A stretch of 64,000 nucleotides of DNA, taken from positions 32,001 to 96,000 of the IMG/VR virus record IMGVR_UViG_3300029288_002061, one strand, 5' to 3'. The translations under genes and the position numbers were made by a program. The notes below the pieces were generated by a model, which worked only from the letters and a program-made list of their open reading frames with translations, did not search any database and was not told the DNA's origin. This document shows positions 6,929-64,000 of this stretch, piece after piece. Origin of the DNA: a virus. Its lineage: Duplodnaviria > Caudoviricetes. Position 1 is the stretch's first letter, and every line of letters starts with the position of its first letter.

Positions 6929-9514
6929 TTACCTTATTCCATGCAACGGGCCACTCGGTTCACCGTAATTGAGTATATTGTTATTACGGTCAATTTTAAC
7001 CAAAGCCTGTCCCAAAACGTACTCATCAAGAACGATCTGGACGGGTACTGATATTGTACCCCTATCGCCTCCGGCGGGCCGCCCCTGTGATTCAACCGTC
7101 TGATTAGGACTCTGAGGTGCGCTATACGGAGTTGTCATTGACATCGCCATATGACGGAAAGCCGGTTGTGCTACCGCTCTTCCCGGTTCAACCTGAGTCC
7201 TTCTCTTTTCGGTTATCACAATACCGGTCTGGATGTCTTTTTCTGCCGCCTCATTCATTGCACGCTGCTTTTCCAGCATAACGGCAAGACTCTTATTGGA
7301 GTCTATGGTGTTTCTGTTGAGATTTTCTGCGGCATTTGCTGCTTTGTCCATCGCGCCGGTTACACCGTGAATAGCTGCCTGTTGACGGCTATAAGCATCT
7401 GCGGCAGCAAGGGCGCGCTTCTTGGCTGCGGCGTATTCATCCGTTTTCTCGTAATCTTGGGCTGTTTTACCTCTTCCGAGCCATTCAAGGAATTTCTCAT
7501 AGAGGTCAGTAACGGTAGCAATGGCTGCCTTGGCTTTTCCTACTATTGCATCATATAGATATTCCGCAGCCTTGTATACCAATCCTGACACGTACTTAGC
7601 GGCTGTCCCTACCGCACCTATAAGTGCGCCGCCTATTGAAGCCCCAAGACCACCAAGGAGCTTAAACACATAGATAACAGCACTTGTGAGGTCAGAGAAG
7701 ATCGCTATAGCCAGCCCGACTGCCCAGACAATGCCGTATACCAGATATGCCACGGATTTCAGCACAACACCAGCTACTTTACCAAAGTAGAACATGGTTC
7801 TTGAGAATTCTTCAGTTTTCCCCTTCCCGGCGTCGGTTATGCTGAAAAGATTCTTAAAAGCGGCAAAGAGAATGGTAAAGGCATCCCCCATGCCCTTCAT
7901 GGAATCTTTTACACCGGCATAAAACGAGTTCCACCAACCCTTTAGTGTAATGAGTATATTACCTACCCCTCCAAGAGCCTTTGCTATTCCAAGGAAAACA
8001 CCTACAATAGCCAAACCTATTGCTATAACAGGAAGAGCTGCGGCGGCAAATCCGGCAAGACCGGCGGTACCAGCCGCTATGGCGGCTTTAACGGCAATAA
8101 CCGCCGCACCCATCTTCGCCCAAAGAGCAGTAAATCCGGCTACGATACCGGCCCATAGACCCCCAGAGAAGAGACCTCTTATGGACATGGACAACCCACC
8201 AAGCCACCCTAATGCTTGACCGGATACCGATTTTACTCTTGTACCTAGCATTGTAGCGAAAGTATTGGCTCTTATGGTAAGAGAGGTAAACTCTTTACCG
8301 AGATTTTCCAAAGGAGGTATGATACCGGCAGCGTGCCTACCAAGAGCGGCTATCGCGTGGTTTACCGCTACGAAAGCCAAAGTCATACCGCCTATAAGCC
8401 CTATAACACCCTTTACCGGAGTCGGCAGAGCATTCAAGACATACAAGAATCCACGGAATAGAGCTATCATGGTGGCAATAACTGGGTTAAGAATCGACCC
8501 AAATCCTCTGGCGAACGCCTTAAGATCTTCTACAAGCCGCTTCATCTGTTCACCTATACCACCGATGATCTTGTCATAAAGCGATGCCAGTGTTACAGTT
8601 CCGTCCGCCGCGTCCTGTTGGGCCTGTAAAGACGCATTGAGCGCACCGGCTTGCTTACCAAGGGTGTTAAGCCATTCGATCTGGACTGCATTCAACTTTC
8701 CGGTACTAACGATCATACGCCGCTGTTCCGCCGACACATTGGACATACCTTGCTGAAGGATGCCAAGAGCTTTCACCGGGTCGGAAAGCATCGCTTGAGA
8801 TGCTTGATGGAAGAAAGCTGGCAGACCGGCAAACTCTTTACCGTAGGATTGAAGATCCCGCATGAACATGTCAAACATGGCATTGGCATTGGCGGTTGAC
8901 CCTGTAGCGTTCTCAAAGGCTGCCGCGAGAGCCATAGCGTTTTCTTTTGTACCACCGAACATCTTAGCCAAAGCACCGCCTTGGGTGGCAAAATGCGCCA
9001 TAGATTCCATAGCCGCGCCGGTTCTATATGCAATGGCACCCATAGCGGAATTCATCCGCTCAAGCTCTGAATTGGTCAGTCCAAGGTCGGTTTTAAGCTG
9101 TCTCATGGTCTTGGCGATATCTTCAACCGCCCTATTCAAAATAGAGCTGAGTTGGCGGGATTGAACCGCCAATTTGACCATAGAGGCTTCTGTCATGCCT
9201 TGGGTACGGATAAGTTGCTGGTAGGTTGCTACAGCCCCCGCCAAACCGGAAGAAAGCGTTCCGTATCGGTCAATGATATCATTGAGTACGATTCCTTGGC
9301 GAAGGTATACATCTGAAGAGCGTCTTACCACAGAATCTATCTCATCAAACGCCTTAATCATATTCATAAGGACATGCTTGAGATATAGATACGCTTTCGT
9401 GGTGTGTGTCAGCCGGGAAGCCAAATCCTTAAGGGCATTAACAGCTTGCGTAGAGTCCGCAAGAATGCGAATCAGTGTTACCCGTGCTGTGGAGCTTCCT
9501 GATCCGGCTGACAT
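6929..9514 (-). CDS. Tail tape measure protein
   Basis: 861-aa Ala/Gly-rich helical protein with hydrophobic segments, directly downstream of the chaperone. Confidence 0.88.
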   Translation of the reverse strand: MSAGSGSSTARVTLIRILADSTQAVNALKDLASRLTHTTKAYLYLKHVLMNMIKAFDEIDSVVRRSSDVYLRQGIVLNDIIDRYGTLSSGLAGAVATYQQLIRTQGMTEASMVKLAVQSRQLSSILNRAVEDIAKTMRQLKTDLGLTNSELERMNSAMGAIAYRTGAAMESMAHFATQGGALAKMFGGTKENAMALAAAFENATGSTANANAMFDMFMRDLQSYGKEFAGLPAFFHQASQAMLSDPVKALGILQQGMSNVSAEQRRMIVSTGKLNAVQIEWLNTLGKQAGALNASLQAQQDAADGTVTLASLYDKIIGGIGEQMKRLVEDLKAFARGFGSILNPVIATMIALFRGFLYVLNALPTPVKGVIGLIGGMTLAFVAVNHAIAALGRHAAGIIPPLENLGKEFTSLTIRANTFATMLGTRVKSVSGQALGWLGGLSMSIRGLFSGGLWAGIVAGFTALWAKMGAAVIAVKAAIAAGTAGLAGFAAAALPVIAIGLAIVGVFLGIAKALGGVGNILITLKGWWNSFYAGVKDSMKGMGDAFTILFAAFKNLFSITDAGKGKTEEFSRTMFYFGKVAGVVLKSVAYLVYGIVWAVGLAIAIFSDLTSAVIYVFKLLGGLGASIGGALIGAVGTAAKYVSGLVYKAAEYLYDAIVGKAKAAIATVTDLYEKFLEWLGRGKTAQDYEKTDEYAAAKKRALAAADAYSRQQAAIHGVTGAMDKAANAAENLNRNTIDSNKSLAVMLEKQRAMNEAAEKDIQTGIVITEKRRTQVEPGRAVAQPAFRHMAMSMTTPYSAPQSPNQTVESQGRPAGGDRGTISVPVQIVLDEYVLGQALVKIDRNNNILNYGEPSGPLHGIR

Positions 9515-10556: not shown

Positions 10557-11108
10557 TTAAGTGTTCAAACCACTTTGCGGCGCACCATTAGGGTTATTCT
10601 GGCCGCTGCTGATAACCTTCATACCCTCGTGCTGGATAACAACGGACTCGATAACCACCTCGCTACCCATTGCATTCAAAGCGCCAAGACGAAGCTCACT
10701 GGGCCAAGCATTCATCAAAACCCATGTCTTATTTGCGCTGCCGGACGAGGATTCGCCCTTACCATAGAGCTTAATAGTGATGGTTCTGCGGTATTGCGGA
10801 GGAATAATACCATCACCGTAACCGGAGCCGCCGTTTGTCGCACTGGCGTCCTCGTAGGACGCACACTGATTACGCCAATCCAGAAGAATCGTGCTATTAC
10901 TGAGGCCGCGCTGCATCGTAACGGGCTGCCATTCAATCAGACCGGGGAACTTCCGCATCCAAATTGGCATGTTTCCTTCACGGTATTGTACAACAGCGGA
11001 GACGCTATTCAAGCCATCCACCTGAGAAAAGCCAATCTTTTCATAGGGCGGAATGTCCACTTGAAACTTCATACCAAGATAAGGTTCATAACTGGTAACA
11101 TCAGCCAT
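10557..11108 (-). CDS. Tail tube protein (T4 gp19 family)
   Basis: FQVDI...GFSQVDGL...YREG...KFPG...VTMQRG...W.L.NAWP...LNA motifs. Confidence 0.93.
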   Translation of the reverse strand: MADVTSYEPYLGMKFQVDIPPYEKIGFSQVDGLNSVSAVVQYREGNMPIWMRKFPGLIEWQPVTMQRGLSNSTILLDWRNQCASYEDASATNGGSGYGDGIIPPQYRRTITIKLYGKGESSSGSANKTWVLMNAWPSELRLGALNAMGSEVVIESVVIQHEGMKVISSGQNNPNGAPQSGLNT

Positions 11109-11678: not shown

Positions 11679-14282
11679 TTAGGCAATGCCTTCGGTTACT
11701 GAGCTACCACCATCCCACAGCCCAAGGCTGATAATAAAGAACTCAACCGGCAGGGGCGGATTAAGACCGATTTCCATATTCAGGCGTCCATCCTTGCGTT
11801 CACTATTCGGGTTAAGCTCGGCGTCACACTTGACATAATATGCCTTGGTAACGTCATTGGACGGATAGAGCATACCGCGAGACCAGAGACCATACATGAA
11901 CTCACTGTTTGTTTGTTCTACTTGCTGCCATAGACGTGGATCATTGACCTTCATTATAGCCCAACGGTTCCCGATCCGGAGACTAGCCTTGACATAGTTA
12001 AGGAGTCTGCGGACGTTGATATACTGGCGACCGTCCATCGTGTTCCACAGGGTACGGCAGCCATAAATCCGGATACCGTCGCCGGGGAACCAACGGATAA
12101 CGTTAACGCCAACCGGGTTAAGAAGGTCTTGGTCGGCATCGCTTGCATGGTACTGGGTGTCAATAACATCCCGGAGGAGTGTATTGGCCGGGGGGACATG
12201 CACACCTTCGGTAGCCGCTGTACGGGCGTACTGGCCGCACACGATACCCGAGGGCGGAATCAGCATATTGGTATCCGTGTTATCCGGGTCATTGACTTCA
12301 ATCCACGGGTAGTACAGGGCCGCGTAGGAGCTGTTGATGTTAAGCTCAAACACGCGGTAGTTGTATACCTCTTGCGGAAGATCAGTCCATTCCGGGCAGT
12401 CCATGACGTACAGAAGCTCTGCGCGCTGTTCGGCATACGCGGTAGCGGCAACTTGCATCGCCGTGGTCGTGATACCCGGAACGGCAAAGAAGTTAAGCTC
12501 ACTTACATCGTCAAACAGATACAGGCCGCTCTTGGGGTCAACGTCACTTCCGATATAATCATCATCCACCGGGGTAGCACCATCGACACCACCGGCGAGG
12601 ACTTGCTTGACCACCGGGCGGGGGATCTTCATCCAGTCATAAACCGGGGTAGCATAGAGGTCTGTGACTTCAATCTTAACCGACCGGTTCGAGATACCGC
12701 TGAGGAGGTTCATGACGTAGGTATTGCAGTCTTCCATCATGGACAGGCCGGTAAACTGTTCTTGGAACTGGCCCTTCTCAAAGACGGTCATCTGGAACTC
12801 TTGGGATACCGCCAAGGCACCCGAAGCAATCGGGGTAACAAGGCTTACATCGTCAAACTTGATGATATTGCCGTCGATACCCGTGATAATCACTTCCGTC
12901 ATGGAGGTTCCGTCCATGATCGTTACAAGACCGCCGATTTGAAGACCGGCAACGTCACCAACCGTAACTTGGGTATCGCCGTCATTCAGGGCCGCCGTAG
13001 TCGTGGTGGACATGAAGTGGTTACTGGAACTGGTGATGATCGAACCCGCCGGGAGCTGTGCAGTCAAACCCGACACCGGGAAGGCCAGAGTCACCGCTTT
13101 GGTGGAGATATCAACGTCATAAATCAGGTTGACAAACATGTTTGCGGGGGTCGTCGGGTCATAGGCATAGATAACGTCGCCTTTCTTCATATCCCGAAGG
13201 CTCGACACCACCACAACCGAGTCACCATTGGTAACGGGGTTACGGAACGTGGTAGACCAAGCGGCAGTCGTGATGGAGAGCTGATTACCCCATGCACCTT
13301 CCGAATTCGCGGCAACCATAAGGGCATTCTGGAACGTCGCGGCAGAACCGTAGTGGATCAGGTTATCAAACCCGATTGCGGTGGCCGTGGACGAAGAAAG
13401 CACTTGAACCGAAGCCGTGGGGCCAAGGCTGGTCGATTGGATCTGTACCCGACCGGTTGTGGTAGCCGAAGCCGTACCCCCGGTGATGGTCAGGTTGATG
13501 ACGTTAGCCACTGTAGCGGCAGTCACGGCGTCGATCAGGGGAACGTTACCCGTACCGTATGTGGTTCCGGCGGTCAGGCCGAGCTTGGTAAGGGCTGTAC
13601 CACTAACGATTTCCACACTGGCGGCGGTACCGGCAGAGTCCGAGGTGATGCGGAGGTTCCCGCCGCTTACCGTGACTTTGGCAAGACTGATAACACCATT
13701 GAGGAACGCGGCGACTTCATTCACCGTGGCCGGATCAGCAAGACCGGTAATAGTCAAAGTCTGATCGGGATTCCCGTCGATGGATACAACCAGATTCAAA
13801 CCGTCCAAGCCGGTTCCGTCAAAGGTAGACCCGGTAACAACGGCAGGATCGGCATCAAACGTGAACGTCTGGGTTCCGCCACCGTCGATTTTGAGGTCAA
13901 TATCGGCCCCGTCTTCCATATTGAACGGACTAGAACTGCCAGAGATGATCGTTGCCGCCGAAGGCTCACTACCGAGGTTCTGAAGATTGCCATAGGCATT
14001 CTCAGCCCCATCACCCACAACGCGGTTGATATAGCAGCGAGTTCCGCCCTGTTTGAAGAAATAGCGGACGGCTTGATAGAGGTGGCTGCCACGGTAGCTA
14101 CCACCGTAGTTGTTTACAAATTGCTGGAAGCTGGAACAGAAAACGGAACGGTCGGTACGCCCTTTTTCGGCGGAACCGACAAAACCGCACGTATTAACGC
14201 CGACGCCGACGATACGGGGTTCATTATCCCGTTCAATTACATACACTCCAGGATGAATCGCTTCGACCGCCAAGATAGCCAT
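11679..14282 (-). CDS. Tail sheath protein with large insertion domains
   Basis: PGVYVIE, GFVGxAEKG, YFFxQGGxxCY, YAALYYPW, PPSG, LNPxGVNxIR and YINVRR motifs. Confidence 0.96.
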   Translation of the reverse strand: MAILAVEAIHPGVYVIERDNEPRIVGVGVNTCGFVGSAEKGRTDRSVFCSSFQQFVNNYGGSYRGSHLYQAVRYFFKQGGTRCYINRVVGDGAENAYGNLQNLGSEPSAATIISGSSSPFNMEDGADIDLKIDGGGTQTFTFDADPAVVTGSTFDGTGLDGLNLVVSIDGNPDQTLTITGLADPATVNEVAAFLNGVISLAKVTVSGGNLRITSDSAGTAASVEIVSGTALTKLGLTAGTTYGTGNVPLIDAVTAATVANVINLTITGGTASATTTGRVQIQSTSLGPTASVQVLSSSTATAIGFDNLIHYGSAATFQNALMVAANSEGAWGNQLSITTAAWSTTFRNPVTNGDSVVVVSSLRDMKKGDVIYAYDPTTPANMFVNLIYDVDISTKAVTLAFPVSGLTAQLPAGSIITSSSNHFMSTTTTAALNDGDTQVTVGDVAGLQIGGLVTIMDGTSMTEVIITGIDGNIIKFDDVSLVTPIASGALAVSQEFQMTVFEKGQFQEQFTGLSMMEDCNTYVMNLLSGISNRSVKIEVTDLYATPVYDWMKIPRPVVKQVLAGGVDGATPVDDDYIGSDVDPKSGLYLFDDVSELNFFAVPGITTTAMQVAATAYAEQRAELLYVMDCPEWTDLPQEVYNYRVFELNINSSYAALYYPWIEVNDPDNTDTNMLIPPSGIVCGQYARTAATEGVHVPPANTLLRDVIDTQYHASDADQDLLNPVGVNVIRWFPGDGIRIYGCRTLWNTMDGRQYINVRRLLNYVKASLRIGNRWAIMKVNDPRLWQQVEQTNSEFMYGLWSRGMLYPSNDVTKAYYVKCDAELNPNSERKDGRLNMEIGLNPPLPVEFFIISLGLWDGGSSVTEGIA

Positions 14283-14331
14283 TATTTATACTCCTTTACA
14301 AAACGAAGTTGATATTCTGAATACATAATGG

Positions 14332-53555: not shown

Positions 53556-53615
53556 GATTATCCCCTTTCTCTTGTTTGTGAGCGTTCGCGCTCGCTTGTT
53601 TGATCTTACACTTTT

Positions 53616-53644
53616 AATATACAGCACAAACAAGCATTAGTCAA
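53616..53644 (-). promoter_or_regulatory. Sigma70-type early promoter
   Basis: TTGACT-N17-TATATT with upstream T-rich tract. Confidence 0.8.
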
Positions 53645-53661
53645 GAGAAAAATGAGAATTT

Positions 53662-53976
53662 TTATTCGTTATTTCTCCTCTTAAGTATTTGGGCTGTTTC
53701 ATCCGCCGTCAAACGGTGGATTCTAAGGCCGTTTCTTACCAGATATACAGCCGGATACCCGATAGCTAATTCCATAGGGTCGAGTTGATTTACTCTTTCA
53801 GTAAGATAGTCAATACACTTTTGTCTTGTACGTTCCGCCGTCCAGAATTCACGACCCTCCATCTGGACTTCCCACGGATAGTCATGGACACAAAAGCTAT
53901 ACACAAAGGTATCCAATAGACACCTGAGCGGATGTAATAGAGTCTTGGCCGCGCCTTTAAGGGTTTGTTTCAGCAC
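53662..53976 (-). CDS. DP/LTxxE paralog
   Basis: LDPMELAIG...LTADE. Confidence 0.6.
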   Translation of the reverse strand: MLKQTLKGAAKTLLHPLRCLLDTFVYSFCVHDYPWEVQMEGREFWTAERTRQKCIDYLTERVNQLDPMELAIGYPAVYLVRNGLRIHRLTADETAQILKRRNNE

Positions 53977-54187
53977 AATCTATCCCCATAATCCGGTTAA
54001 GATGCTCTTCTGATATCTTTTCTAGCCGCCCGTTATAGCTTATTTTAACCTCTTCCATAGCAAATAGAAGCGGTTCTAGCTGCCCGTCCCGGACAAGTAT
54101 CCTCAGATAGTCTATAACCGAACCCATATGGGTAAAGCGGATGATATTACCCCGTCCGATTCTTACCGCAAATTTGTGCTTAGCCAT
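53957..54187 (-). CDS. DP/LTxxE paralog
   Basis: LEPLLFAMEEVK...ISEE. Confidence 0.65.
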   Translation of the reverse strand: MAKHKFAVRIGRGNIIRFTHMGSVIDYLRILVRDGQLEPLLFAMEEVKISYNGRLEKISEEHLNRIMGIDCAETNP

Positions 54188-54193
54188 CCTGTT

Positions 54194-54445
54194 CTAATCC
54201 TCATCACTCCCGACGATGTATTCTAGATCATCTTTGGATAATGTTACTGGCTCCCCGCGATTAAATACCTTAACTTCTCCCATAGCAAGCAACAAAGGAT
54301 CTACAACCCCGTCTTTGAGCAATCTCCTGATGTTTTTCAAAGCATCCTTAAAGGTCTTATATCGAGGTCTTGCGCTACCAAAGCTAACCGTGTATGGAAG
54401 GGCTTCGTCCAGAACGGATTGTGGAATCTGAAAGGGGTTATCCAT
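54194..54445 (-). CDS. DP/LTxxE paralog
   Basis: VDPLLLAMGEVK...LSKDD. Confidence 0.65.
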   Translation of the reverse strand: MDNPFQIPQSVLDEALPYTVSFGSARPRYKTFKDALKNIRRLLKDGVVDPLLLAMGEVKVFNRGEPVTLSKDDLEYIVGSDED

Positions 54446-54722
54446 GATGTTTTAGTCCTTTGGCTATATAGGCGATTTCTGATGGTGTTAGCCGCTCTTT
54501 TACTGGGTTTCCGTCTTCATCCTTGACATAAGTATTAACAAGGAATGTTTCCGGCATTCCCATAGCAATATACAGTGGTTCATATAGGTCTGCATGGACG
54601 CGGATATGATTTAAGGCGGATTCCCGCAAACGATGTCCTGAGCTACTATTGTGTGAGCATACAACGTCCCACTGACCTTTAGAGACGTTTTCCCATGCCA
54701 AACTATCCTTTTTCTTACTCAC
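54438..54722 (-). CDS. DP/LTxxE paralog
   Basis: YEPLYIAMG...LTPSE. Confidence 0.6.
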   Translation of the reverse strand: MSKKKDSLAWENVSKGQWDVVCSHNSSSGHRLRESALNHIRVHADLYEPLYIAMGMPETFLVNTYVKDEDGNPVKERLTPSEIAYIAKGLKHHG

Positions 54723-55602: not shown

Positions 55603-55890
55603 TTAACCAATATCTACCGCGTCAAGCGCCGTAACACCTACTATCATATAATCATTGTGTTCTTCGTCATATTGGACACTATACAACAGGAAATCCTGAA
55701 GTTTTAGCATGAAATAGAATGGGTCTCCTAAAGGTGTGTCAATGCGGGAGAACACTTCAAAATGCTTTTGTATAGCTTCATCAACACTATCGCGTAAGAC
55801 TCTAGATAGGCAAACATCAGACGGAAAATGAGATCCTACTTTATAATATGGGCTTTCGGAGCATCCTTTAACAGCAACTAGGTACTTCAT
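55603..55890 (-). CDS. DP-family paralog
   Basis: DSVDEAI...GDPFYFMLKLQDFLL. Confidence 0.6.
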   Translation of the reverse strand: MKYLVAVKGCSESPYYKVGSHFPSDVCLSRVLRDSVDEAIQKHFEVFSRIDTPLGDPFYFMLKLQDFLLYSVQYDEEHNDYMIVGVTALDAVDIG

Positions 55891-56711
55891 TCGTTTTCTC
55901 CTTCTTTCTTGCCGCCGTTGGCGGTCTGCATGATGAAGTCAACCACCTTGCACACCCGTGCCAGAACCGCAACACAAGCATCCGCCATGTTCTTATCGGT
56001 CTTTTCCGCCCAGTGGGTGATATACTCGTAAGCGCCGCCAATATCGGCCTCTTCGGCCTTGCCCAGCATGGTCAAGAGAACCGCGCCGCCAAGCTCTGCC
56101 ACAACTTCGTTATAAGCATAGTCACCCTGCTTCTTGCCGATAGTGCCAAGCTTATCATCGGCGGCATGCATCAATTCATGCGCCCATGTCGAGAGATTCT
56201 TAACTGCAAGAGTGATACCCTTGCCGAAAGTGTAGCAACCGAGAGCTTCACCGTCTTTGCCGTTTTCGGCGTCAACCGTCAACCCCCACGCCTTTGCCAC
56301 TTCAATCAGCGGGAGAGCGTCGATATACTGGGCAACGTCTTCGGCGGTCTTCGGGAGTTCCTTCCCTTCGGTCTGTTCAAGTCCGAACACCGGAACGCCC
56401 TTGAAGCCGTAGGTGATATAGCGGTCTTCACCCGCTTCATTCGTGATCTTGCTCTTGAGCGGGGCAAGAATGTAGAACGCCTTTTCACCCTTCTTGACGT
56501 TCCGCCCGAGGTCTTTCCAGCCGTTGAACCCCATGGCATCGGTATAGCCGTTCAGGGCGACGATGAAGCGATTCATAAGGCTATAACCCTTGGCATGATT
56601 GTCACGGCAACCCGCGATATACGCTTGCGCGATAGCGGCGGGAACGGTACCGGTCTGGAACGCATTGACGATCTTCGCCGCAACCTCTTCGCTCTTGCCG
56701 TAGAACTTCAT
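55887..56711 (-). CDS. ardC: ArdC-like antirestriction protein (ssDNA-binding + zincin domain)
   Basis: YSxxN, GFxxWKxLGRxVKKGEKA, VFxxEQTEG, AHELxH and EVVAE motifs. Confidence 0.85.
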   Translation of the reverse strand: MKFYGKSEEVAAKIVNAFQTGTVPAAIAQAYIAGCRDNHAKGYSLMNRFIVALNGYTDAMGFNGWKDLGRNVKKGEKAFYILAPLKSKITNEAGEDRYITYGFKGVPVFGLEQTEGKELPKTAEDVAQYIDALPLIEVAKAWGLTVDAENGKDGEALGCYTFGKGITLAVKNLSTWAHELMHAADDKLGTIGKKQGDYAYNEVVAELGGAVLLTMLGKAEEADIGGAYEYITHWAEKTDKNMADACVAVLARVCKVVDFIMQTANGGKKEGENE

Positions 56712-56767
56712 GATGATCCCCTTTCTTGAGTGTCGCGCCCCTTTGCGCGTTTTAATCTTACATATTG

Positions 56768-56796
56768 AATATACACTACAGAAGCTTGTTAGTCAA
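56768..56796 (-). promoter_or_regulatory. Sigma70-type early promoter for ardC
   Basis: TTGACT-N17-TATATT; flanks resemble the 53616 promoter. Confidence 0.8.
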
Positions 56797-56820
56797 GAGA
56801 AAAAACAGAATTTTATTAGA

Positions 56821-56848
56821 AAAAGAAAACCCCCGCATCTGCGAGGGT
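56821..56848 (-). terminator. Probable Rho-independent terminator
   Basis: ACCCTCGCAGATGCGGGGGT hairpin followed by TTTCTTTT on the minus strand. Confidence 0.6.
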
Positions 56849-56854
56849 CTTTGA

Positions 56855-56870
56855 CTGCATACGTCTGCAG
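56855..56870. repeat. Palindrome copy 15 (between stop and terminator)
   Basis: ctgcatacgtctgcag. Confidence 0.95.
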
Positions 56871-56880
56871 TTTTGGTTAT

Positions 56881-57072
56881 TTATTCGGGGTTTTGTGGTA
56901 TGAAATAGATGGTAATGCTTGTTAACTGCCCATCATCCTGCTTTTGCCACACCACAGAATCAACGGCGGAAAGGTTAATCCCCATGTAATTCGGAATAAC
57001 ATCCAGCGGGAGAGGACACTTATCAAAATCAACCTCAAAACACCCGCCGATATCAATTCGGTTTGTTTCCAT
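56881..57072 (-). CDS. Hypothetical protein
   Basis: AGGAG RBS. Confidence 0.6.
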   Translation of the reverse strand: METNRIDIGGCFEVDFDKCPLPLDVIPNYMGINLSAVDSVVWQKQDDGQLTSITIYFIPQNPE

Positions 57073-57081
57073 GTGGTTCTC

Positions 57082-57372
57082 CTAGCTTGCAATCCCGGCC
57101 TTGGATACATCTTCAAGAATCGCTTGGGCTTTCTCTACCGGATAGAAGTCATCATCGATTTTCACCATGGGCAGGATAGGAATACACTGATATGCCGCCA
57201 GAGCATCAACCGATCCATCATCCCGCCATTGCGGATGATATTTTGCATGGTATTCCATATCATGGGCCTTATACGGAATGTGCTTCTCTTGGAGATATTC
57301 CTTGAAGTCTTCGCAATTCGGGCAGTTTTCTTTACCAAAAACCTCAATAACAGGGTATTCAATGGCTGTCAT
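57082..57372 (-). CDS. Glutaredoxin-like protein
   Basis: IEVFGKENCPNC active site; LPMVxID cis-Pro motif. Confidence 0.85.
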   Translation of the reverse strand: MTAIEYPVIEVFGKENCPNCEDFKEYLQEKHIPYKAHDMEYHAKYHPQWRDDGSVDALAAYQCIPILPMVKIDDDFYPVEKAQAILEDVSKAGIAS

Positions 57373-57448
57373 AACATACCTTCCTTGCCTGATTTATGGT
57401 TTATTCTTGAAATAATAGCAAGGGATCTGATCCCCTTGCAAGGTAAAA

Positions 57449-57727
57449 TCAATCATCCGACAGACTGATTTCGGTATTCAGATATTTAACGCCCATTTCT
57501 TTTTCCGCGTCCATAACGGCCTTCAATTCACCTCGCTTTCCGTCTTCCCGATAGGAGAATGCCACGATGGTTTCACACTTGGGACAGACAAAATACTTCC
57601 GTGTCACCTTGATAGGCTTCCCGGCGCAATCCAGAGCGTCCTCGTGCGGCACCGTTCGGGCAAAGTTCATGGTTTCATGGTCAAGAGGACAATACACTCT
57701 ATTCCCTTGAACGGATACACTTCCCAT
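57449..57727 (-). CDS. Zn-ribbon protein
   Basis: CPxD...CPKC. Confidence 0.55.
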   Translation of the reverse strand: MGSVSVQGNRVYCPLDHETMNFARTVPHEDALDCAGKPIKVTRKYFVCPKCETIVAFSYREDGKRGELKAVMDAEKEMGVKYLNTEISLSDD

Positions 57728-58017
57728 TATTCGGCTTTCTCAATGATGGTAGGTTTCTTTTCCAGTGACATCATAATGATTTGAAGCATATTGGCGTTAG
57801 CGTTTTCTTCTTTATTCAGGATCTCAGTAATGGTTTCCGCTTTATTGGCGAATTCCGCGAATGTGATAAGGTTCTTTTCAATCATCAGCGAGAGCGTTGC
57901 CATAAGTCCAGCGGAAAGAAGATTTGTCAGTCCCGCCGTATGCTTGATGATTTCAACCAGTTCGCTCCCGATTTCCTTCTTCATCTCCGCTTCCGGATTC
58001 ACTTCGTTGGCTTCCAT
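57727..58017 (-). CDS. Hypothetical protein
   Basis: LIEKNLITxxEF motif; coupled to the next gene. Confidence 0.55.
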   Translation of the reverse strand: MEANEVNPEAEMKKEIGSELVEIIKHTAGLTNLLSAGLMATLSLMIEKNLITFAEFANKAETITEILNKEENANANMLQIIMMSLEKKPTIIEKAE

Positions 58018-58099
58018 AATTCCATCCTATTCATTCATAGACACGAAAACAACTGCCTTATATGGTATACATAACCCTATAAGATACAAGATATTGTGA

Positions 58100-58390
58100 C
58101 TATTCCGTTTTTTCAGTTGGTTTGATGATCTTGGCGTTTCTTGCCTTATCCATCTCTGCAAGTGCCATACGGGCAGCGACTTTATAGATTTCGTCACCCT
58201 GAATTGCTGCTACTTCCCGAAGGGCCGTGAGGGCGGCAACAAACATGGATAATCCGTCATTATTTTGTGATGGTTCCTGTACCCACCGCCCTTGACCGAT
58301 ATCATTCATGACAAAAGTAAGGGCATAAGAGCCTTTATAGGACTTATGGGTGTTATCTGAGAGATTTTTAATGGTCACTTCCACCGGCAT
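58100..58390 (-). CDS. Hypothetical protein downstream of actin
   Basis: AAGGGG RBS. Confidence 0.6.
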   Translation of the reverse strand: MPVEVTIKNLSDNTHKSYKGSYALTFVMNDIGQGRWVQEPSQNNDGLSMFVAALTALREVAAIQGDEIYKVAARMALAEMDKARNAKIIKPTEKTE

Positions 58391-58401
58391 AGGATTTCCC
58401 C

Positions 58402-59388
58402 TTACATAGACGCCATAACCAAACAGCCACGGGCAACCGAATAAAGCGGATCCGGCACAAGACGGATCTCACTGATTTCAATGGGGAAGTCCTGCGTTGA
58501 AAAGACTTGCTTGAAGAGCTCAATGAATCCCGGCACCATAGCAGTACCACCAGCTATGACAATTGGCACCGGATTCTTGAACGCCGGGAGGTTATCCCCG
58601 TTTTCAAGACGATCTTTCATATTGGCAAGGGTATAGGTAATGACTTCTTTGTAATACGCATAGAGGGCCGCAATACGGCGGTCTGTGGTGTCGGGGTCAA
58701 GGTTCATGGTCTTTCCCTCTTTGAGGGCTGTGATTCTCGATGTAGGCTCCCCGCAGGCTTTGGATGCCTTTTGGTCAATCCAGTCCCCGGAACGGCATGA
58801 AGAGAATGCCAATACCGGGAGGGAACGGAAGGATACGCATGTATTGACCATGCCGCCGCCGAAAGACATGGCAATCCCTGTGAAGTCATCATTACTGAGC
58901 GCGTCCAGAGCAACCGCGTGGGCTTCCGTTGTCTCAATAGGCTCCATGCCAAGATGCCGCAAGGCACCCTCGATGATGTTCTTGTGGAATACGTTGTCAA
59001 TCTGGGTGTCAATTGGGTTTGCGGGGCAGGAATAGGCGACTTTTGCTCCCTTTTCAACGCCGGAATCGTTAAGAAGCTTCTCAATCATCCGGGTGATCAT
59101 CGGGACGGCTTCCATCTCCCCGCTGGAAATGACGCCTGATGCCATAGGACGGCGAAGGTCTTTCCCAAAGGTCGTTGCCATTTCAAAAGCATCATCGCCG
59201 ATCAGATAAAGGTTCTTATCCTTTTCATAGTATGGCATTTTCAACTGCTTAAGCATACTCAGGGCGAATTTATCCTTGCCGATTTCAAGAAAGTTATTCC
59301 GCATCCGGAGGACTTTTGAGCCTGTATCGGTAGGGACACACACAACAAGGTTTGCCGTTCCGGGGTCGAGCGAAGCCACCATAACCAT
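58402..59388 (-). CDS. Actin-like ATPase (MreB/ParM superfamily, volactin-like)
   Basis: Phosphate-1 LDPGTAN, RRPMxxG, EAxA, phosphate-2 SFGGG, GDWID, adenosine IAGGT and P.YSVARG. Confidence 0.9.
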   Translation of the reverse strand: MVMVASLDPGTANLVVCVPTDTGSKVLRMRNNFLEIGKDKFALSMLKQLKMPYYEKDKNLYLIGDDAFEMATTFGKDLRRPMASGVISSGEMEAVPMITRMIEKLLNDSGVEKGAKVAYSCPANPIDTQIDNVFHKNIIEGALRHLGMEPIETTEAHAVALDALSNDDFTGIAMSFGGGMVNTCVSFRSLPVLAFSSCRSGDWIDQKASKACGEPTSRITALKEGKTMNLDPDTTDRRIAALYAYYKEVITYTLANMKDRLENGDNLPAFKNPVPIVIAGGTAMVPGFIELFKQVFSTQDFPIEISEIRLVPDPLYSVARGCLVMASM

Positions 59389-59822
59389 TAACTATCTCCT
59401 TTGAGCCGTTTTAGTGCTTGTATACTACTCGTAATACTGTTAGAGTCAACTGTTTCCGCTTTGGCGGATGATAAATTATCCGCATTTTTTGATTGAAAGA
59501 ACGCATCCGGAAGGGTTTCACTCCCGACTTCAACCGCCGACCGGTGTTCCCGCAGGGCTTCAGGGACTGCATACGTCTGCAATTTCCCCGGCATGGTTTC
59601 GGTCATGGCGGCCTTTACAGCACCATAGATAACCGAATAAAGGCGGTCATAATCCAGTTCTACGGCGGTATTTGCGGCAGCGGGTTCGGATTGTACGGTT
59701 TGGATGACCAAAGAACGCATTGCTTTCTTCAGACACTCCTCGTCCTTCTGATTCAGAGAGCTAAACCCGCCAACAGAGCGTTTATTTTGCTCCCAGAAGG
59801 CATCGAACATGTCTTTTGGCAT
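59388..59822 (-). CDS. Hypothetical protein translationally coupled to actin (candidate adaptor)
   Basis: TAATG overlap with the actin start; C-terminal amphipathic helix SIQALKRLK. Confidence 0.6.
   Translation of the reverse strand: MPKDMFDAFWEQNKRSVGGFSSLNQKDEECLKKAMRSLVIQTVQSEPAAANTAVELDYDRLYSVIYGAVKAAMTETMPGKLQTYAVPEALREHRSAVEVGSETLPDAFFQSKNADNLSSAKAETVDSNSITSSIQALKRLKGDS
59567..59582. repeat. Palindrome copy 16 (in actin-coupled gene)
   Basis: ctgcatacgtctgcaa. Confidence 0.95.
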
Positions 59823-59843
59823 AAATAGGCTCCGTTTTTGGGC

Positions 59844-60203
59844 TTATACCTCGAAATAGGACGTGTTACACCGTGGACACGTCTTTTTGTATTCGCGGAT
59901 GGAGGACTTAAACTTGTTTTTGCATACCATACAAGTATAAACCTTCTCCAATGCCTTTGTCTCCCGCTTTATCCGCTCTTTTTCGGCTTTCTTGGCCGCG
60001 CTGTACTCTAGGGCTTCGGTTATATAGCCACATGCCGCCCCTTTGGTCAACGAATTCACCCAAACGTCATAGCCAATCAGGGTAATAATCGTCTGTAGCT
60101 CTTCGGGAGCTATGGTTTTGACATACGCCGACAATTTCATCATGGCGTTTATCTGGGCTTCCGTAATCGGATCAGGATCTTTGTTAAGAATCCAGTCGGG
60201 CAT
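59844..60203 (-). CDS. Hypothetical protein with C-terminal Zn ribbon
   Basis: ITEAQ...LTKGxAxxxI; CMVC...CPRC. Confidence 0.6.
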   Translation of the reverse strand: MPDWILNKDPDPITEAQINAMMKLSAYVKTIAPEELQTIITLIGYDVWVNSLTKGAACGYITEALEYSAAKKAEKERIKRETKALEKVYTCMVCKNKFKSSIREYKKTCPRCNTSYFEV

Positions 60204-60217
60204 AGCTCTGTTCCGTC

Positions 60218-60667
60218 CTAAAGTACATGCAATACCCCAATTATACCAATTTCCTTGATCCGGCCTGACCATGTTCCGGGTTTTACCTTGGTTTCGGCCT
60301 TTGGACGGGCAACATTGATATGGATCTCAACAACTTTCTCGTCTTTGTTCCTGACATAGGGTTCGTCGGGCAACCAAACCCGCCCCCAGTCTTCTTGAAG
60401 CTCTTTCACCCAACCACGGACGTATGCTTGGGCGTCCCTGACGGGGATTCCGGCGGGTTTTTCCTTCCAGTCCGCCGAGAATATCATATCCTGATGCTTA
60501 CAATGCCCGCGAAGTTCAAAAGCCTTGCAAGTGCAAGACTCTTTGGACATATGATAAACAGTTTCGTCAAGGATACCTTCATCCGAATAGGTGATTTTCA
60601 GCACATCAAACTGACCTTCACCCGTCGGTTTCAGTATGTAGGAGTGTTCTTTATGCGTTTTTGGCAT
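60218..60667 (-). CDS. SWIM zinc-finger protein
   Basis: CTCKAF...CKH. Confidence 0.8.
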   Translation of the reverse strand: MPKTHKEHSYILKPTGEGQFDVLKITYSDEGILDETVYHMSKESCTCKAFELRGHCKHQDMIFSADWKEKPAGIPVRDAQAYVRGWVKELQEDWGRVWLPDEPYVRNKDEKVVEIHINVARPKAETKVKPGTWSGRIKEIGIIGVLHVL

Positions 60668-61563
60668 TATGACACCTTCTTAGCCAGTTCCGCGATATCC
60701 GGATTGCAGTATTCAACCGTTCCGTCATGAGAAGCGGCAAAGATCTTGACGCCATAGGCGGTCTCAATGCGGGATAGGAGGGTATTCAGGAGGTCTTCCC
60801 GCCCAGTAAGGCATTCCGCAAGGAACGCTTGGGCGATACATTCCATAAGCCAAGGTTCTTTATCCGATCCCGTGATATCCTTGGCTTTCTGCATGGCGTT
60901 CTGCCACACGTTCCAGATCGGTTCGGGCAATCCGGCACGGAACATATGAATGACTTCTTGAGGTTTTGATTGGATTGATACATCTTCCGCCTTGATGCTT
61001 CCGACGGCCTTGCTTACCGCCACGTCCACATCCTCGCCGGTATGGGCTGCGCGGGTTCTGGCATCACTGGCGACCTGAGCGGCCTTTGTCTTCGCCGTAT
61101 TGGACATCTCCCGGAGTTCGTTATAGGTCTTCCCTTTGACCTTTTCCATCCAGTCTTCCGAGTTGTCCCGCGTGATAATCCCCTTATTGACCAGCGGGGC
61201 CAGTGTAGCGGCCTTTGTCCACCCCAGCCGCTCCACATCGGCTTCCGTGAATGCACCCTTTTCCACCGCGCCGAAGACATCCAGAAGATAATAAGCCTTC
61301 CGCTCCCGGAATCCCAGTTCTCGCTCGCAATACTCGTCAAAAGACTGATATCCCCATGACATCCAAACGGGCTTTCCGTTGTCCAGCGTCCGGATACTGA
61401 CTTGCTTCAGCTTCGCGCCCAAATGGTAATAGGTCTTTTCAATCCCTTCCCGGAGTTCCAAGACTTCCGCCCGGAGAGCTTGCGCATCACTGACGGACAT
61501 CTTGAGTTCTTCCGGAATCACCTGAGTGTCAATCACAAGCACATCACTGTTTTTCTTACTCAT
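60667..61563 (-). CDS. HTH DNA-binding protein resembling plasmid-partition (PFam49/DUF3102-like) proteins
   Basis: LGxKL...W..WGYQSFDEYCERELGFRERKAYYL motif. Confidence 0.6.
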   Translation of the reverse strand: MSKKNSDVLVIDTQVIPEELKMSVSDAQALRAEVLELREGIEKTYYHLGAKLKQVSIRTLDNGKPVWMSWGYQSFDEYCERELGFRERKAYYLLDVFGAVEKGAFTEADVERLGWTKAATLAPLVNKGIITRDNSEDWMEKVKGKTYNELREMSNTAKTKAAQVASDARTRAAHTGEDVDVAVSKAVGSIKAEDVSIQSKPQEVIHMFRAGLPEPIWNVWQNAMQKAKDITGSDKEPWLMECIAQAFLAECLTGREDLLNTLLSRIETAYGVKIFAASHDGTVEYCNPDIAELAKKVS

Positions 61564-61978
61564 TATCTACCCTTTCGGTATACACGGCCATGTAATCCTT
61601 CAACCTAGAAGGAGTTACGCCAATTCTCAATCCCATTTCCATGAAAGAGAGGTTCTTGGAGAGGGAATCATTGATGAAATGCTGGGGTGATTCATATCCT
61701 ACCGAGCGGACTTTACAACAGAATTCCGGCCATGTCAAATTATATTTTGACAACCAATAGCGGATTGTCCCTTCCGACACCCCGATAAGCTTGGCAAGGG
61801 TGGAATTGTTATAACCCCGCTTATTCAGATACCAGTAGAGGACTTCCGCCGGATCATCCGACCGATAACCTTCTTGATTAGCTTGGGCTAAAAGCCTTCT
61901 ATGATCCAAAATGCCACCCGCCTTTCTCCTGTACCAACTGGCGGATTGCTTTTCCGTCCACATAATCCAGAAAATCAT
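61556..61978 (-). CDS. Double-HTH protein (true start probably about 61909)
   Basis: LAKLIGVSEGTIRYW and MGLRIGVTPSRL. Confidence 0.65.
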   Translation of the reverse strand: MIFWIMWTEKQSASWYRRKAGGILDHRRLLAQANQEGYRSDDPAEVLYWYLNKRGYNNSTLAKLIGVSEGTIRYWLSKYNLTWPEFCCKVRSVGYESPQHFINDSLSKNLSFMEMGLRIGVTPSRLKDYMAVYTERVDNE

Positions 61979-62480
61979 TGAATTTCATGAAGGTAAGCCG
62001 TTCCGTCTCCACGGTGGGATCTTCACACCGCCCGACTACAAAGTGCATGGACGGAATAGCCGAAAACGGGCCTGAAACGGCTTTCAGCCATTGATATTCC
62101 TTCCGACCGACCATCATAAGAGCATTTGCCAACCCAGCCGTCTTTGAGAACACAACCATCCGCTGCTTCCCGGCTTTGACCGGGGCCATATCGTTCATCT
62201 CAAACCACCAGTCAAGTATCGGATGCTTCTTGGCCGTAAGGAGCTGTTCAAGATGCCATTCCGGGCCACTCCCGCCTTTGCGCTGCTTGGCGTCCACACA
62301 CCAAGGGAATTCCTTGTCAAACTCCGGAGTTGTCGCTACAATATCCCCTTCGGCGCGCTTCAGGGGCCATCCGCCGGAACACGGAGAGCGCCGGAGCGTC
62401 GTTTGATCTCCAAAATACCACTCACTGAGGGCTTTTGCCATAACGAGCTCAAAAGACTTCCACTTCTGACTATTAGCCAT
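61899..62480 (-). CDS. Holliday-junction resolvase-like PD-(D/E)XK nuclease
   Basis: KxxSFE...RxPxSGG...GDI...VDAK. Confidence 0.7.
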   Translation of the reverse strand: MANSQKWKSFELVMAKALSEWYFGDQTTLRRSPCSGGWPLKRAEGDIVATTPEFDKEFPWCVDAKQRKGGSGPEWHLEQLLTAKKHPILDWWFEMNDMAPVKAGKQRMVVFSKTAGLANALMMVGRKEYQWLKAVSGPFSAIPSMHFVVGRCEDPTVETERLTFMKFNDFLDYVDGKAIRQLVQEKGGWHFGS

Positions 62481-63396
62481 TGCTTTCCTTCCACCTCTGT
62501 TCAAAGATATCCGAGAACTTCCCGAAGCAAATATCCCTAAAAGCACACCGCTTTGCAGCCGCGCAAGACTTATTCTGACACGACGCCGGGACAAGGATCT
62601 TTCCCGCGTTCATTTTGTAATAATCTTCCGCAATACGCCGGATTTCCGCCTCGATAAGCGGATCGAAATAAATCTTGATCTCTTTGGTGGGATTTGCCAT
62701 GTTAGAGGACTTATCCACGTAGAGGATAATGGAGCGGCGGATATTCAAACCCATCATATAGCAATGGACTTGGTAGATATAGGACAAAGATGGTTCTTTC
62801 AAGTCCCGGAATCGGTCTGGGTCGATGGTTTTGATATCCATAACCCAAGGGCCGTCACCACGGTCAATGATGCCGTCACAATGCCCGACTATTCCCAATT
62901 CCGGAATCAGGATCTCCGGCTCAACAAACCGCCACCGACCACATCCGCAACTGCATACGTCTGCAGGACGGAATCCTTCCACGATGGATTCACATTGCGG
63001 ACACCTCCAACCGCCTTTCAGGATGCCCATCTGTCCAAGATAGTGATTCTGATACCAGTGGTGAATAGCATGGCCGATATCAAACTTTGCTTGGAGAGTA
63101 GCGGAAATGGATTCCTCGAATGTCATCCCCGTGATAGCCGGATCATCCTTCATAACTTCCAGAAAGTTCTCGTCATACATCTTGGCACGGTAACACATAC
63201 CATAGATTTGCGAAGGATGGAGTCCTTTTGCGCGTTTTTCATCCGTTTTCCGGAAAAAGCCAGTGGATAGCGCCGTTTTCAACGGTTCTGAGACGACATC
63301 ACCACCAAATTCCCACTTTTTGGCTATGGATTCGGCAATATCGGATTCTGTCTGCTTCTGTTTGTGGAATGCCGCGTGAATATCTGCTAGGCTCAT
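62473..63396 (-). CDS. Cas4/RecB-like PD-(D/E)XK exonuclease
   Basis: HPS...C.R, GHAIH, GHCDG, DIKT, QxxxY and C-terminal Cys cluster. Confidence 0.85.
   Translation of the reverse strand: MSLADIHAAFHKQKQTESDIAESIAKKWEFGGDVVSEPLKTALSTGFFRKTDEKRAKGLHPSQIYGMCYRAKMYDENFLEVMKDDPAITGMTFEESISATLQAKFDIGHAIHHWYQNHYLGQMGILKGGWRCPQCESIVEGFRPADVCSCGCGRWRFVEPEILIPELGIVGHCDGIIDRGDGPWVMDIKTIDPDRFRDLKEPSLSYIYQVHCYMMGLNIRRSIILYVDKSSNMANPTKEIKIYFDPLIEAEIRRIAEDYYKMNAGKILVPASCQNKSCAAAKRCAFRDICFGKFSDIFEQRWKESNG
62951..62966. repeat. Palindrome copy 17 (in Cas4-like gene)
   Basis: ctgcatacgtctgcag. Confidence 0.95.
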
Positions 63397-63413
63397 AATG
63401 GTCTTTCTATTTT

Positions 63414-63456
63414 TTGCAATAATAGCAAGCATTTGTATTAGGGCTGCTTGGAAGTT
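63414..63456 (-). promoter_or_regulatory. Conserved 43-bp promoter-like element (copy 2)
   Basis: 36/43 identical to 24431-24473. Confidence 0.65.
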
Positions 63457-63470
63457 GTTACAATACCCAT

Positions 63471-63701
63471 TTATTTCAAAAGTTCGGGGCCGGTTATCAC
63501 TTTACCACAAGAACCCGGCGGGAGCAAGACAAATCCGTTTTTGGCGCGTTCCTTCTCAACTTCCAGCCTGATCTTTTCCGTTTCCCAAGCATTCTTATTG
63601 CCTTGGTAGAAAGCATTTATGAGAAAGCACACCACGACAGTTATACAGATAGACAAAACACATTCCCGGATTGTCTGTAGATGTTCGTTATCCATTGTCA
63701 T
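63471..63701 (-). CDS. Small membrane-anchored protein
   Basis: N-terminal hydrophobic helix. Confidence 0.55.
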   Translation of the reverse strand: MTMDNEHLQTIRECVLSICITVVVCFLINAFYQGNKNAWETEKIRLEVEKERAKNGFVLLPPGSCGKVITGPELLK

Positions 63702-64000
63702 TTTCTTTTACCTTTTCTAAGAGTTTCTTGAATTCACTCATGGGTACTGCTACCCACTCGTTTTCCGTAAATCCATTCATGCCACCGAGTTCTATCACCA
63801 ACGCGGGGATCTTACCGACGTTGATAGCCTCATGGTCAATCTTGGTTAGCCATTCCGCCTTTACCGTGATAGAGTTCTTATCTGTCCGCTTTGCCTCGAT
63901 AAGGAAATCGGCCATCTTTACATCTCCCTTGAAGTGTTCAAAGCACCCCGATCCGGGCTGGGTCTTCCCACCAAGTTCTTTGGCTATCCGCTTTTCTTGG
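63688..64000 (-). CDS. Hjc-like PD-(D/E)XK nuclease (start outside window)
   Basis: QEKRIAKELGG...PGSG...KGDV...LIEAKRT. Confidence 0.75.
   Translation of the reverse strand, partial: QEKRIAKELGGKTQPGSGCFEHFKGDVKMADFLIEAKRTDKNSITVKAEWLTKIDHEAINVGKIPALVIELGGMNGFTENEWVAVPMSEFKKLLEKVKENDNG

Follow-up and report, generated by a model that had tools for sequence, protein, structure and literature searches.

The stretch analyzed here, hereafter the window, comprises 64,000 nucleotides (nt; bases 32001-96000) of a 106-kb IMG/VR viral record (IMGVR_UViG_3300029288_002061) judged 79% complete. Its minus strand carries nearly all of the genes (gene listing), including a two-gene cassette for a 328-amino acid (aa) actin (58402-59388) and the 144-aa protein encoded immediately upstream (59388-59822), which we designate an adaptor for its coupling to the actin and its conserved tail. 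In the order of transcription, the locus codes for a Cas4-like exonuclease, a PDDEXK_15 nuclease, a 140-aa protein with two helix-turn-helix (HTH) stretches, a 298-aa HTH protein, a SWIM-like protein, a zinc-ribbon protein, the adaptor, the actin and a 96-aa protein. The cassette forms the 3' end of a replication and recombination operon that includes PolA, a SNF2/DEAD helicase, RecA, the Cas4-like exonuclease, PDDEXK_15 and the HTH proteins. A terminator scan found no convincing terminator between position 63600 and the intrinsic terminator closing the long operon (56851-56826, minus strand), and the operon is therefore probably read as one long transcript. The record also carries a dispersed palindrome. 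A preliminary description of the locus proposed that the actin, its coupled partner and the HTH proteins form a phage segregation module and that the palindromes serve as its distributed centromere.

The actin matches the Pfam Volactin profile (PF25216) over its full length (positions 1-321 of 321; E value of 5.5e-73; 246.7 bits against a cut-off of 35), and a genome search confirmed the assignment. The matches to MreB_Mbl/MreB, Salactin and MamK in Pfam and NCBIfam were all below threshold, and no match to the ParM/StbA family was found among the results of either database. These profile assignments place the protein in the volactin family and not with ParM. The nucleotide-binding motifs for phosphate 1 (D8-G10-T11), phosphate 2 (G177-G179) and adenosine (G280-G281) are invariant in a 34-sequence alignment, in agreement with the actin-fold ATPase of the preliminary description. 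The homolog search returned 321 sequences, and the nearest cellular relatives, in Planctomycetota, Omnitrophota and Patescibacteria, are 40-45% identical. A single-sequence scan of viral contigs with the actin found nothing, but an alignment-based scan identified volactin relatives on 553 IMG/VR contigs and on at least 549 planctomycete and omnitrophote genome contigs. In a phage collection, tblastn with the actin retrieved only two huge uncultured phages (33-36% identity), and blastn with the region found nothing. Volactin was defined in Haloferax volcanii, where the filaments of the founding protein (VolA, HVO_2015) are dynamically unstable and extend across the cytoplasm, and Schiller et al. 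list its binding factors as unknown (PMC10869688). The family reaches well beyond haloarchaea, although dynamic filaments are known only for the Haloferax protein.

The adaptor is translationally coupled to the actin. Its TAA stop codon overlaps the actin ATG as TAATG at position 59388, and an AAAGGAG Shine-Dalgarno sequence lies upstream, both read directly as the preliminary description had reported. The protein has no family in Pfam, PHROG or NCBIfam and its full-length homologs fall into only four clusters at 50% identity. Its maximum hydropathy (0.59) predicts no transmembrane helix. The AlphaFold2 model contains helices only, ends in a C-terminal helix (residues 130-140) and has a predicted local distance difference test (pLDDT) score of 45.7, consistent with the partly disordered protein with a C-terminal helix described earlier. 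Neither family searches, nor this low-confidence model, nor the Atlas leads (top score of 0.77, none usable) suggested a DNA- or ParB-binding domain.

The carboxyl end of the adaptor is more informative. We fetched 159 volactin loci (80 viral and 79 from planctomycetes and omnitrophotes) and found in most of the viral ones a gene on the same strand that abuts or overlaps the actin start. The proteins encoded upstream, about 100 to 250 aa long, form many clusters that BLAST does not relate to one another, and neither the phage partner clusters nor the planctomycete upstream genes match a Pfam family. Their N-terminal parts are unrelated, but their last 45-60 residues contain three common elements in one order. 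The first is an aromatic or proline patch, which reads [F/Y]-[I/V]-P-[S/T] in most of the proteins and L-P-D-A-F-F-Q-S in the window adaptor. The second is a short alternating stretch, and the third a terminal basic amphipathic helix (a-L-[K/R]-x-[L/M]-[K/R]-[K/R]; I-Q-A-L-K-R-L-K-G in the window adaptor). Motif counts and the complex model described below assign to this tail the final 60 residues of the window adaptor, with its aromatic patch, short strand and basic helix (59391-59570, minus strand).

The terminal motif is present in 37 of the 61 non-redundant viral upstream proteins, compared to 82 of 1553 other open reading frames (ORFs) in the same loci (Fisher p ~1e-28), and a stricter version of the pattern retains the difference (24 of 61 versus 18 of 1553; Fisher p ~1e-25). 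The tail also ends the upstream gene in 55 of the 79 planctomycete and omnitrophote loci. Several of the others have tandem actins (L100, L114, L121, L131, L134 and L138, in Planctomycetota and Omnitrophota), and the upstream gene is a second volactin paralog rather than a tail-bearing adaptor. Six of the 37 tail-bearing viral partners exceed the hydropathy threshold for transmembrane segments and several of those of about 100 aa are borderline, whereas a partner family of about 220 aa and the window adaptor are soluble by the same measure. We also identified in L180, a contig of a relative, a 159-aa protein ending in the volactin-partner tail (12081-12560). No actin is present in the remaining 1.4 kb of the contig, and the protein could either precede an actin further on or be an orphan adaptor.

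Modeling of the actin-adaptor complex, a check that the preliminary description had recommended, predicts that the tail docks on the actin. Using an actin alignment and an alignment of the 60-residue tails as input, the prediction gave ipSAE interface scores of 0.76, 0.71 and 0.69 (median of 0.71), compared to 0.01 for the best of three controls. The ipSAE mark is reached by 58 of 80 solved complexes and by 2 of 110 mismatched pairs, counts that hold only roughly because the alignments were self-made. The pLDDT of the partner was at least 62 and at least 83% of the contacts were common to the runs. In the model, the terminal helix (tail residues 46-57) packs against three parts of the actin (161-169, 188-189 and 312-328), the short strand is paired with actin strand 24-28, and the aromatic patch rests on residues 52-66 and 95-108. 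The site of the terminal helix would thus be the cleft formed by helix 161-169 and the C-terminal helix 312-328, which we infer from canonical actin topology to be the groove between subdomains IA and IIA. In the type II partition system of plasmid R1, ParR inserts its C-terminal helix into the IA/IIA cleft of ParM. The volactin tail is predicted to wrap along the actin and to dock in a similar way. The conserved tail and its predicted docking support the identification of the actin and the 144-aa protein as a genuine actin-adaptor pair.

The genes that surround the cassette belong to a conserved backbone. The order PolA, helicase, RecA, exonuclease, PDDEXK_15, HTH protein, 298-aa protein, SWIM-like protein, small genes, adaptor and actin recurs in relatives with actin identities of 52-90%, and the position of the cassette is identical in L001, L002, L004, L182, L183 and one contig known from gene calls alone (P0013/P0127). 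Here and below, L-numbered labels denote contigs of relatives or fetched loci and WIN denotes the window in lineage comparisons. Conserved gene order alone shows only that the phages are kin. However, the backbone is preserved on the 14-kb contig L181 (RecA, exonuclease, PDDEXK_15, HTH protein, 298-aa protein, SWIM gene and a homolog of the 96-aa gene) with neither an actin nor a tail-bearing gene between the SWIM gene and the 96-aa homolog, though an actin could lie elsewhere in the genome. Therefore, the cassette behaves as a unit of insertion or deletion in a conserved backbone.

Family searches identified the first two genes of this part of the operon as a Cas4-like PD-(D/E)XK exonuclease (62473-63432) and a PDDEXK_15 nuclease (61899-62594), both on the minus strand, like the genes that follow. 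The SWIM-like zinc-binding protein (149 aa; 60218-60667) and the zinc-ribbon protein (142 aa; 59844-60272) were recognized from weak Pfam matches. The SWIM gene is kept in relatives, including L181 with no actin, and both genes are missing in L183, so that the cassette there directly adjoins the 298-aa gene. On the other side of the actin, the conserved 96-aa gene (58100-58390) has homologs in L182, L001, L002 and L004 and also in L181, from which the cassette is absent at that position. This distribution indicates that the 96-aa gene is independent of the actin.

Mobile elements are also present in the replication and recombination module of the relatives. Inteins with LAGLIDADG homing endonuclease domains split PolA and RecA (L002:1-317, L182:1-303 and L182:4549-6876) and free-standing HNH and LAGLIDADG genes are scattered in the module. 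L183 probably carries tRNA genes, as it contains ends resembling a tRNA T-arm and acceptor (GGTTCGA.. CC.. CCA) at 9105-9137 and 11060-11092. No tRNA genes were found in the window.

Directly downstream of the actin-bearing operon is an ArdC-like anti-restriction gene (55887-56711, minus strand), whose product includes a zincin-like metallopeptidase domain (ArdcN, E value of 4e-8; phrog_7245, E value of 1e-16). A 64-nt element with a sigma-70-type promoter (TTGACT, 17-nt spacer, TATATT) occurs in two copies that are 77% identical (53599-53662 and 56751-56814, minus strand) and probably represent an early promoter family. The second copy, which comes after the 56851-56826 terminator, is the promoter of the ArdC-like gene. 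Elsewhere in the window, three tandem small paralogs (76, 83 and 94 aa; 53957-54722, minus strand) share the motif P-L-L-x-A-M-x-E-V-K. The GC content peaks locally at 12001-14000 (0.55 versus about 0.49), and a long plus-strand ORF (12129-14312) overlies an 867-aa minus-strand gene (11679-14282).

The 298-aa protein (60667-61563, minus strand) is encoded by an ORF that ends 1.28 kb upstream of the actin start, close to the 1.3 kb of the preliminary description. Its 17 homologs are all in this phage group, and the motif W-G-Y-x-S-F-D-E-Y-C...L-G-F-R-E-R-K-A-Y is invariant or nearly so among them. The AlphaFold2 model (pLDDT of 78) starts with an all-helical, putative HTH domain at residues 24-176, followed by a small C-terminal domain, and has no N-terminal CTPase domain. 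We compared the helical domain with 48,161 chains using VIA-align, a search independent of Foldseek, and obtained as the best match the DNA-binding domain of ParB bound to parS (6s6h_B; Z of 7.6; root-mean-square deviation of 3.4 Å; 122 of 140 residues), with further matches to KorB bound to its operator (1r71, Z of 6.0; 8qa8, Z of 5.4). Two DUF3102 proteins in the viral structure library BFVD matched at E values of 0.012 and 0.025, and the Atlas leads were DUF3102 and ParB-HTH (0.82). Foldseek of the model against PDB gave no match at E<=0.001, PDB sequence searches with a single sequence and with a profile returned noise only, and Pfam found no match at E<=1 in any of the 18 family members, including to the ParB/Srx CTPase domain and DUF3102 (PF11300). 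Based on the structure comparison, the protein is a probable ParB/KorB-type (DUF3102-like) HTH protein that lacks the CTPase domain.

The neighboring 140-aa protein (61556-61978, minus strand) conforms to the double-HTH protein of the preliminary description, with borderline to sub-threshold support. Residues 45-82 match MerR_1, HTH_23, HTH_28 and HTH_3 in Pfam (E values of 1e-4 to 3e-4), MerR_1 being the only match above its cut-off, and a second HTH-like stretch spans residues 105-138. The gene is kept beside the PDDEXK_15 nuclease in all relatives. Members of the 298-aa family are absent within 10 kb of the actin in all 80 of the other volactin phage loci. The best explanation is that both HTH proteins are part of a conserved recombination gene set and not of the cassette.

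When up to one mismatch is allowed, the window contains 17 copies of the palindrome C-TGCA-n-ACGT-n-TGCA-G, the number given in the preliminary description, compared to 0.01 expected by chance. The whole 106-kb record contains 28. Half of these (14) fall between genes, in a record with just 9.3% non-coding DNA (binomial p 4e-8), and the other half are within genes, as exemplified by the copy in the Cas4-like exonuclease gene (62951-62966, unstranded; pattern search). Seven copies are followed by a start codon no more than 45 nt downstream; in 2000 trials of random placement the mean number was 0.8 and the highest 4. At least eight copies are positioned 0-20 nt 5' of a Shine-Dalgarno sequence, several of them ending 0-3 nt before it, and two immediately precede intrinsic terminators, one of them at the end of the long operon (56855-56870, minus strand). 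All of these copies are within transcripts. The variable positions 6 and 11 can form a Watson-Crick pair in 7 of the 28 copies, which is the rate expected by chance. Therefore, the constraint is on the two half-sites and the center in duplex DNA, as would be read by a dimeric protein, rather than on an RNA stem. The 16-18-bp palindrome thus looks like a genome-wide binding site for a dimeric DNA-binding protein, located mostly at gene junctions, and its most likely role is to control gene expression as an operator or punctuation site.

One copy of the palindrome is within the adaptor gene (59567-59582, unstranded), 179 nt upstream of the actin start. The same codons (L-Q-T-Y-A) carry the site in WIN, L182, L001 and L183, despite adaptor identities of only 39-66%. 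Its 12 core bases are fixed, including synonymous third positions, whereas the two free positions vary even when this changes the amino acid, and the selection is therefore on the DNA. L004 has its own variant of the palindrome in the adaptor-actin gap, at a distance of 12 nt from the start of the actin gene. In the window, only the copy in the adaptor gene lies near the cassette. No parC-like array was found, as Tandem Repeats Finder detected only trivial two-copy repeats in 56000-64000. Nor does the palindrome density in other volactin phages rise over the 600 nt that precede the actin (0.048 versus 0.046 per kb).

The site differs among relatives. L180 has one copy of the window type, and L183 has five copies with a free center (TGCA-N6-TGCA; 0.14 expected by chance). 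L004 has four copies with the half-site TGTC and the center GCGC, and L002 has three copies of an asymmetric variant. No repeated palindrome was found in the 14-kb contig of L181. Equivalent positions are often occupied, as in L002 and L004, both of which carry a site just before RecA. In L002 (15340-15420), the variant precedes a strong sigma-70-type promoter (TTGACA ... TATACT), about 25 nt from its -35 box, a location that fits a regulatory role. The viral contigs with the exact palindrome are structural-region fragments of close relatives and unrelated 3-kb contigs, and are uninformative about co-occurrence.

To these differences in the site correspond differences in the putative recognition helix of the 298-aa protein, as revealed by aligning the HTH of the family across lineages. 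The helix F-R-E-R-K-A-Y-Y-L-L is common to the lineages with the window-type site (WIN, L182, L001 and L180), even though the L180 protein is otherwise only about 35% identical to that of the window. In L183, which has lost the ACGT center, the helix changes from E to Q. L002, in which the center and one half-site are variant, carries the substitutions E to G and A to G, and L004, in which both half-site and center differ, carries four (R to K, A to G, Y to F and Y to H). In L181, for which no site was found, two positions of the helix differ. The preliminary description had stated that nothing in the sequence directly links these genes to the palindrome; the co-variation is a hint of such a link, and the first at the sequence level. 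It makes the 298-aa protein the best candidate for the palindrome reader, a tentative assignment that we hold at somewhat less than even odds. The 140-aa protein shows no such pattern and is disfavored as reader, as its helices differ between WIN and L001, which have the same site, and are alike in L002 and L004, which have different ones.

Scattered operators of this kind have precedents. KorB reads about a dozen palindromic operators (OB) dispersed over plasmid RK2, near and far from promoters. Likewise, cluster A mycobacteriophages such as L5 carry dozens of copies of a short repressor site (stoperators), mostly in short intergenic gaps of transcription units. The best structural matches of the 298-aa protein are ParB and KorB DNA-binding domains, and the 28 scattered palindromes, enriched at gene junctions, resemble the KorB operators in their distribution. 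Unlike KorB and ParB, however, the 298-aa protein has no ParB/Srx CTPase domain, ParA partner or sequence-family match. Stoperators differ as well, because they are asymmetric and oriented whereas the window site is a palindrome, and because no repressor or lysogeny module was identified in the window. By analogy, KorB with its scattered operators or the phage stoperators would be the closest working models, and a centromere fits less well. The helix-palindrome co-variation also fits a KorB-like regulator better than a centromere.

We favor, with a probability of roughly 0.6, a reading in which the replication operon carries a two-gene volactin-adaptor cassette, the HTH proteins are separate from it and the palindrome is operator-like. 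According to this reading, the phage would polymerize its own dynamic filaments while it replicates. The conserved tail of the adaptor is predicted to dock on the actin with the terminal basic helix in the IA/IIA cleft, and the variable N-terminal part, which is a predicted membrane anchor in many other phages and a soluble helical domain here, would couple the filaments to cargo. Candidate cargoes are the replicating phage DNA or the replisome. The 298-aa protein, with its putative ParB/KorB fold, would read the scattered palindromes as a regulator.

Several observations weigh against this reading. The N-terminal domain of the adaptor has no confident fold (pLDDT of 45.7) and the cargo is a guess. 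The complex score is the confidence of the model itself, computed from self-made alignments, and the IA/IIA interface is assigned from canonical topology. The ParB/KorB fold has Z scores below 8, a range in which helical proteins can match by chance, and no sequence family backs it. The co-variation of helix and palindrome was recognized post hoc and in six lineages. Furthermore, two features point to a link of the palindrome and the 298-aa gene with the cassette. Five of six lineages (WIN, L001, L182, L183 and L004) retain a palindrome copy ahead of the actin, and L183 has the 298-aa gene, the adaptor and the actin directly adjacent. A functional tie between the palindrome and the cassette is therefore possible.

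The best surviving alternative, which we nevertheless consider unlikely, is that the cassette is unrelated to DNA and that its filaments reorganize the host (cell shape, division, or assembly and lysis sites), the soluble adaptor linking them to a protein of the host or the virion. In cells, volactin has a part in transitions of cell shape, and the tips of its filaments touch the membrane (PMC10869688). The adaptors of other phages with a predicted membrane segment (6 of the 37 tail-bearing partners, besides the borderline ones) are compatible with such a role. However, the window adaptor has no membrane segment and the cassette is fixed within the replication and recombination operon of this phage group.

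Less probable still is the proposal closest to the preliminary description, in which the actin, the adaptor and the 298-aa protein make one machine for positioning or segregating DNA, and the 28 palindromes are a distributed centromere bound by the 298-aa protein and bridged by the adaptor to the filaments. The actin-adaptor part of that module stands, given the tail and its predicted docking, and the ParB/KorB-like HTH fold of the 298-aa protein lends weak support to the DNA-binding part. The co-variation of its recognition helix with the palindrome type, the palindrome copy that WIN, L001, L182, L183 and L004 keep inside the adaptor gene or shortly behind it, and the contiguity of the three genes in L183 are also consistent with a single machine. 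A precedent is provided by prophage CGP3 of Corynebacterium, whose AlpC, AlpA and alpS tie a phage-borne actin and its adaptor to DNA sites and are needed for efficient viral DNA replication (PMC4446434, PMC5539076). The three-part module is not supported by the co-occurrence of actin, HTH protein and palindrome in related phages, a comparison that the preliminary description had advocated: the 298-aa family is in none of the 80 other volactin phage loci, and the 14-kb contig of L181 keeps the HTH proteins and flanking genes with neither the cassette nor a repeated palindrome. As for the distributed centromere, there is no local repeat array, no enrichment of palindromes before the actin elsewhere, no DNA- or ParB-binding domain seen in the adaptor and no ParB CTPase domain, and the sites hug ribosome-binding sites and terminators, as operators do. 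It is thus improbable that the adaptor bridges the 298-aa protein, or DNA itself, to volactin filaments that move or organize the replicating genome. If it did, an actin acting on a centromere distributed over the genome would be an architecture not known for any type II system.

We also give little credence to the palindrome being an RNA hairpin (a processing site or translational operator) unrelated to the HTH proteins. The copies 5' of Shine-Dalgarno sequences and before terminators, all within transcripts, speak for it, but half of the copies are inside genes, the whole 16-18 bp is symmetric including the center, positions 6 and 11 pair at chance, and the free center of L183 between outer TGCA half-sites at fixed spacing points to a dimeric protein reading duplex DNA.

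The favored reading of a volactin-adaptor cassette has partial counterparts in three known actin systems. ParMRC of plasmid R1 resembles it in having a small co-transcribed adaptor whose C-terminal helix occupies the IA/IIA cleft, a location that is predicted in silico for the phage tail. The phage cassette differs in several respects: its actin falls outside the ParM family, the adaptor gene comes first, upstream of the actin, which reverses the gene order, the adaptor has no match to a ribbon-helix-helix family and its low-confidence model is helical only, and no centromere of clustered repeats lies beside the cassette. The AlpC system is the nearest functional precedent for an actin cassette inside a replication operon. 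However, AlpA is a DNA-binding adaptor with defined alpS sites beside its operon, whereas no DNA-binding domain was seen in the window adaptor, and AlpC probably belongs to a different actin family. The third counterpart is VolA itself, of the same family as the phage actin. The gene next to it (HVO_2016) has a product resembling CdpA that is suspected to work with volactin (PMC12126565). The window copy differs in being phage-encoded and in having a soluble 144-aa partner instead of the CdpA-like protein with four transmembrane segments. We found no paper on phage volactins or on a volactin-binding tail, and the adjacency of HVO_2016 is the only published hint of a partner (PMC12126565).

The conserved three-element tail is a concrete candidate for a volactin-binding factor, common to phages, Planctomycetota and Omnitrophota and with a predicted docking site. 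Its association with unrelated N-terminal parts makes volactin adaptors modular, with either a membrane anchor or a soluble domain joined to the tail. The distribution of the cassette also suggests that many phages without the tubulin PhuZ build actin filaments. The window adds to this picture a soluble adaptor, the placement of the cassette among replication genes and the co-variation of helix and palindrome, which gives a candidate reader for a genome-wide palindrome. As the cassette sits among replication genes and its adaptor is soluble, this phage group would be the best place to ask whether volactin carries DNA.

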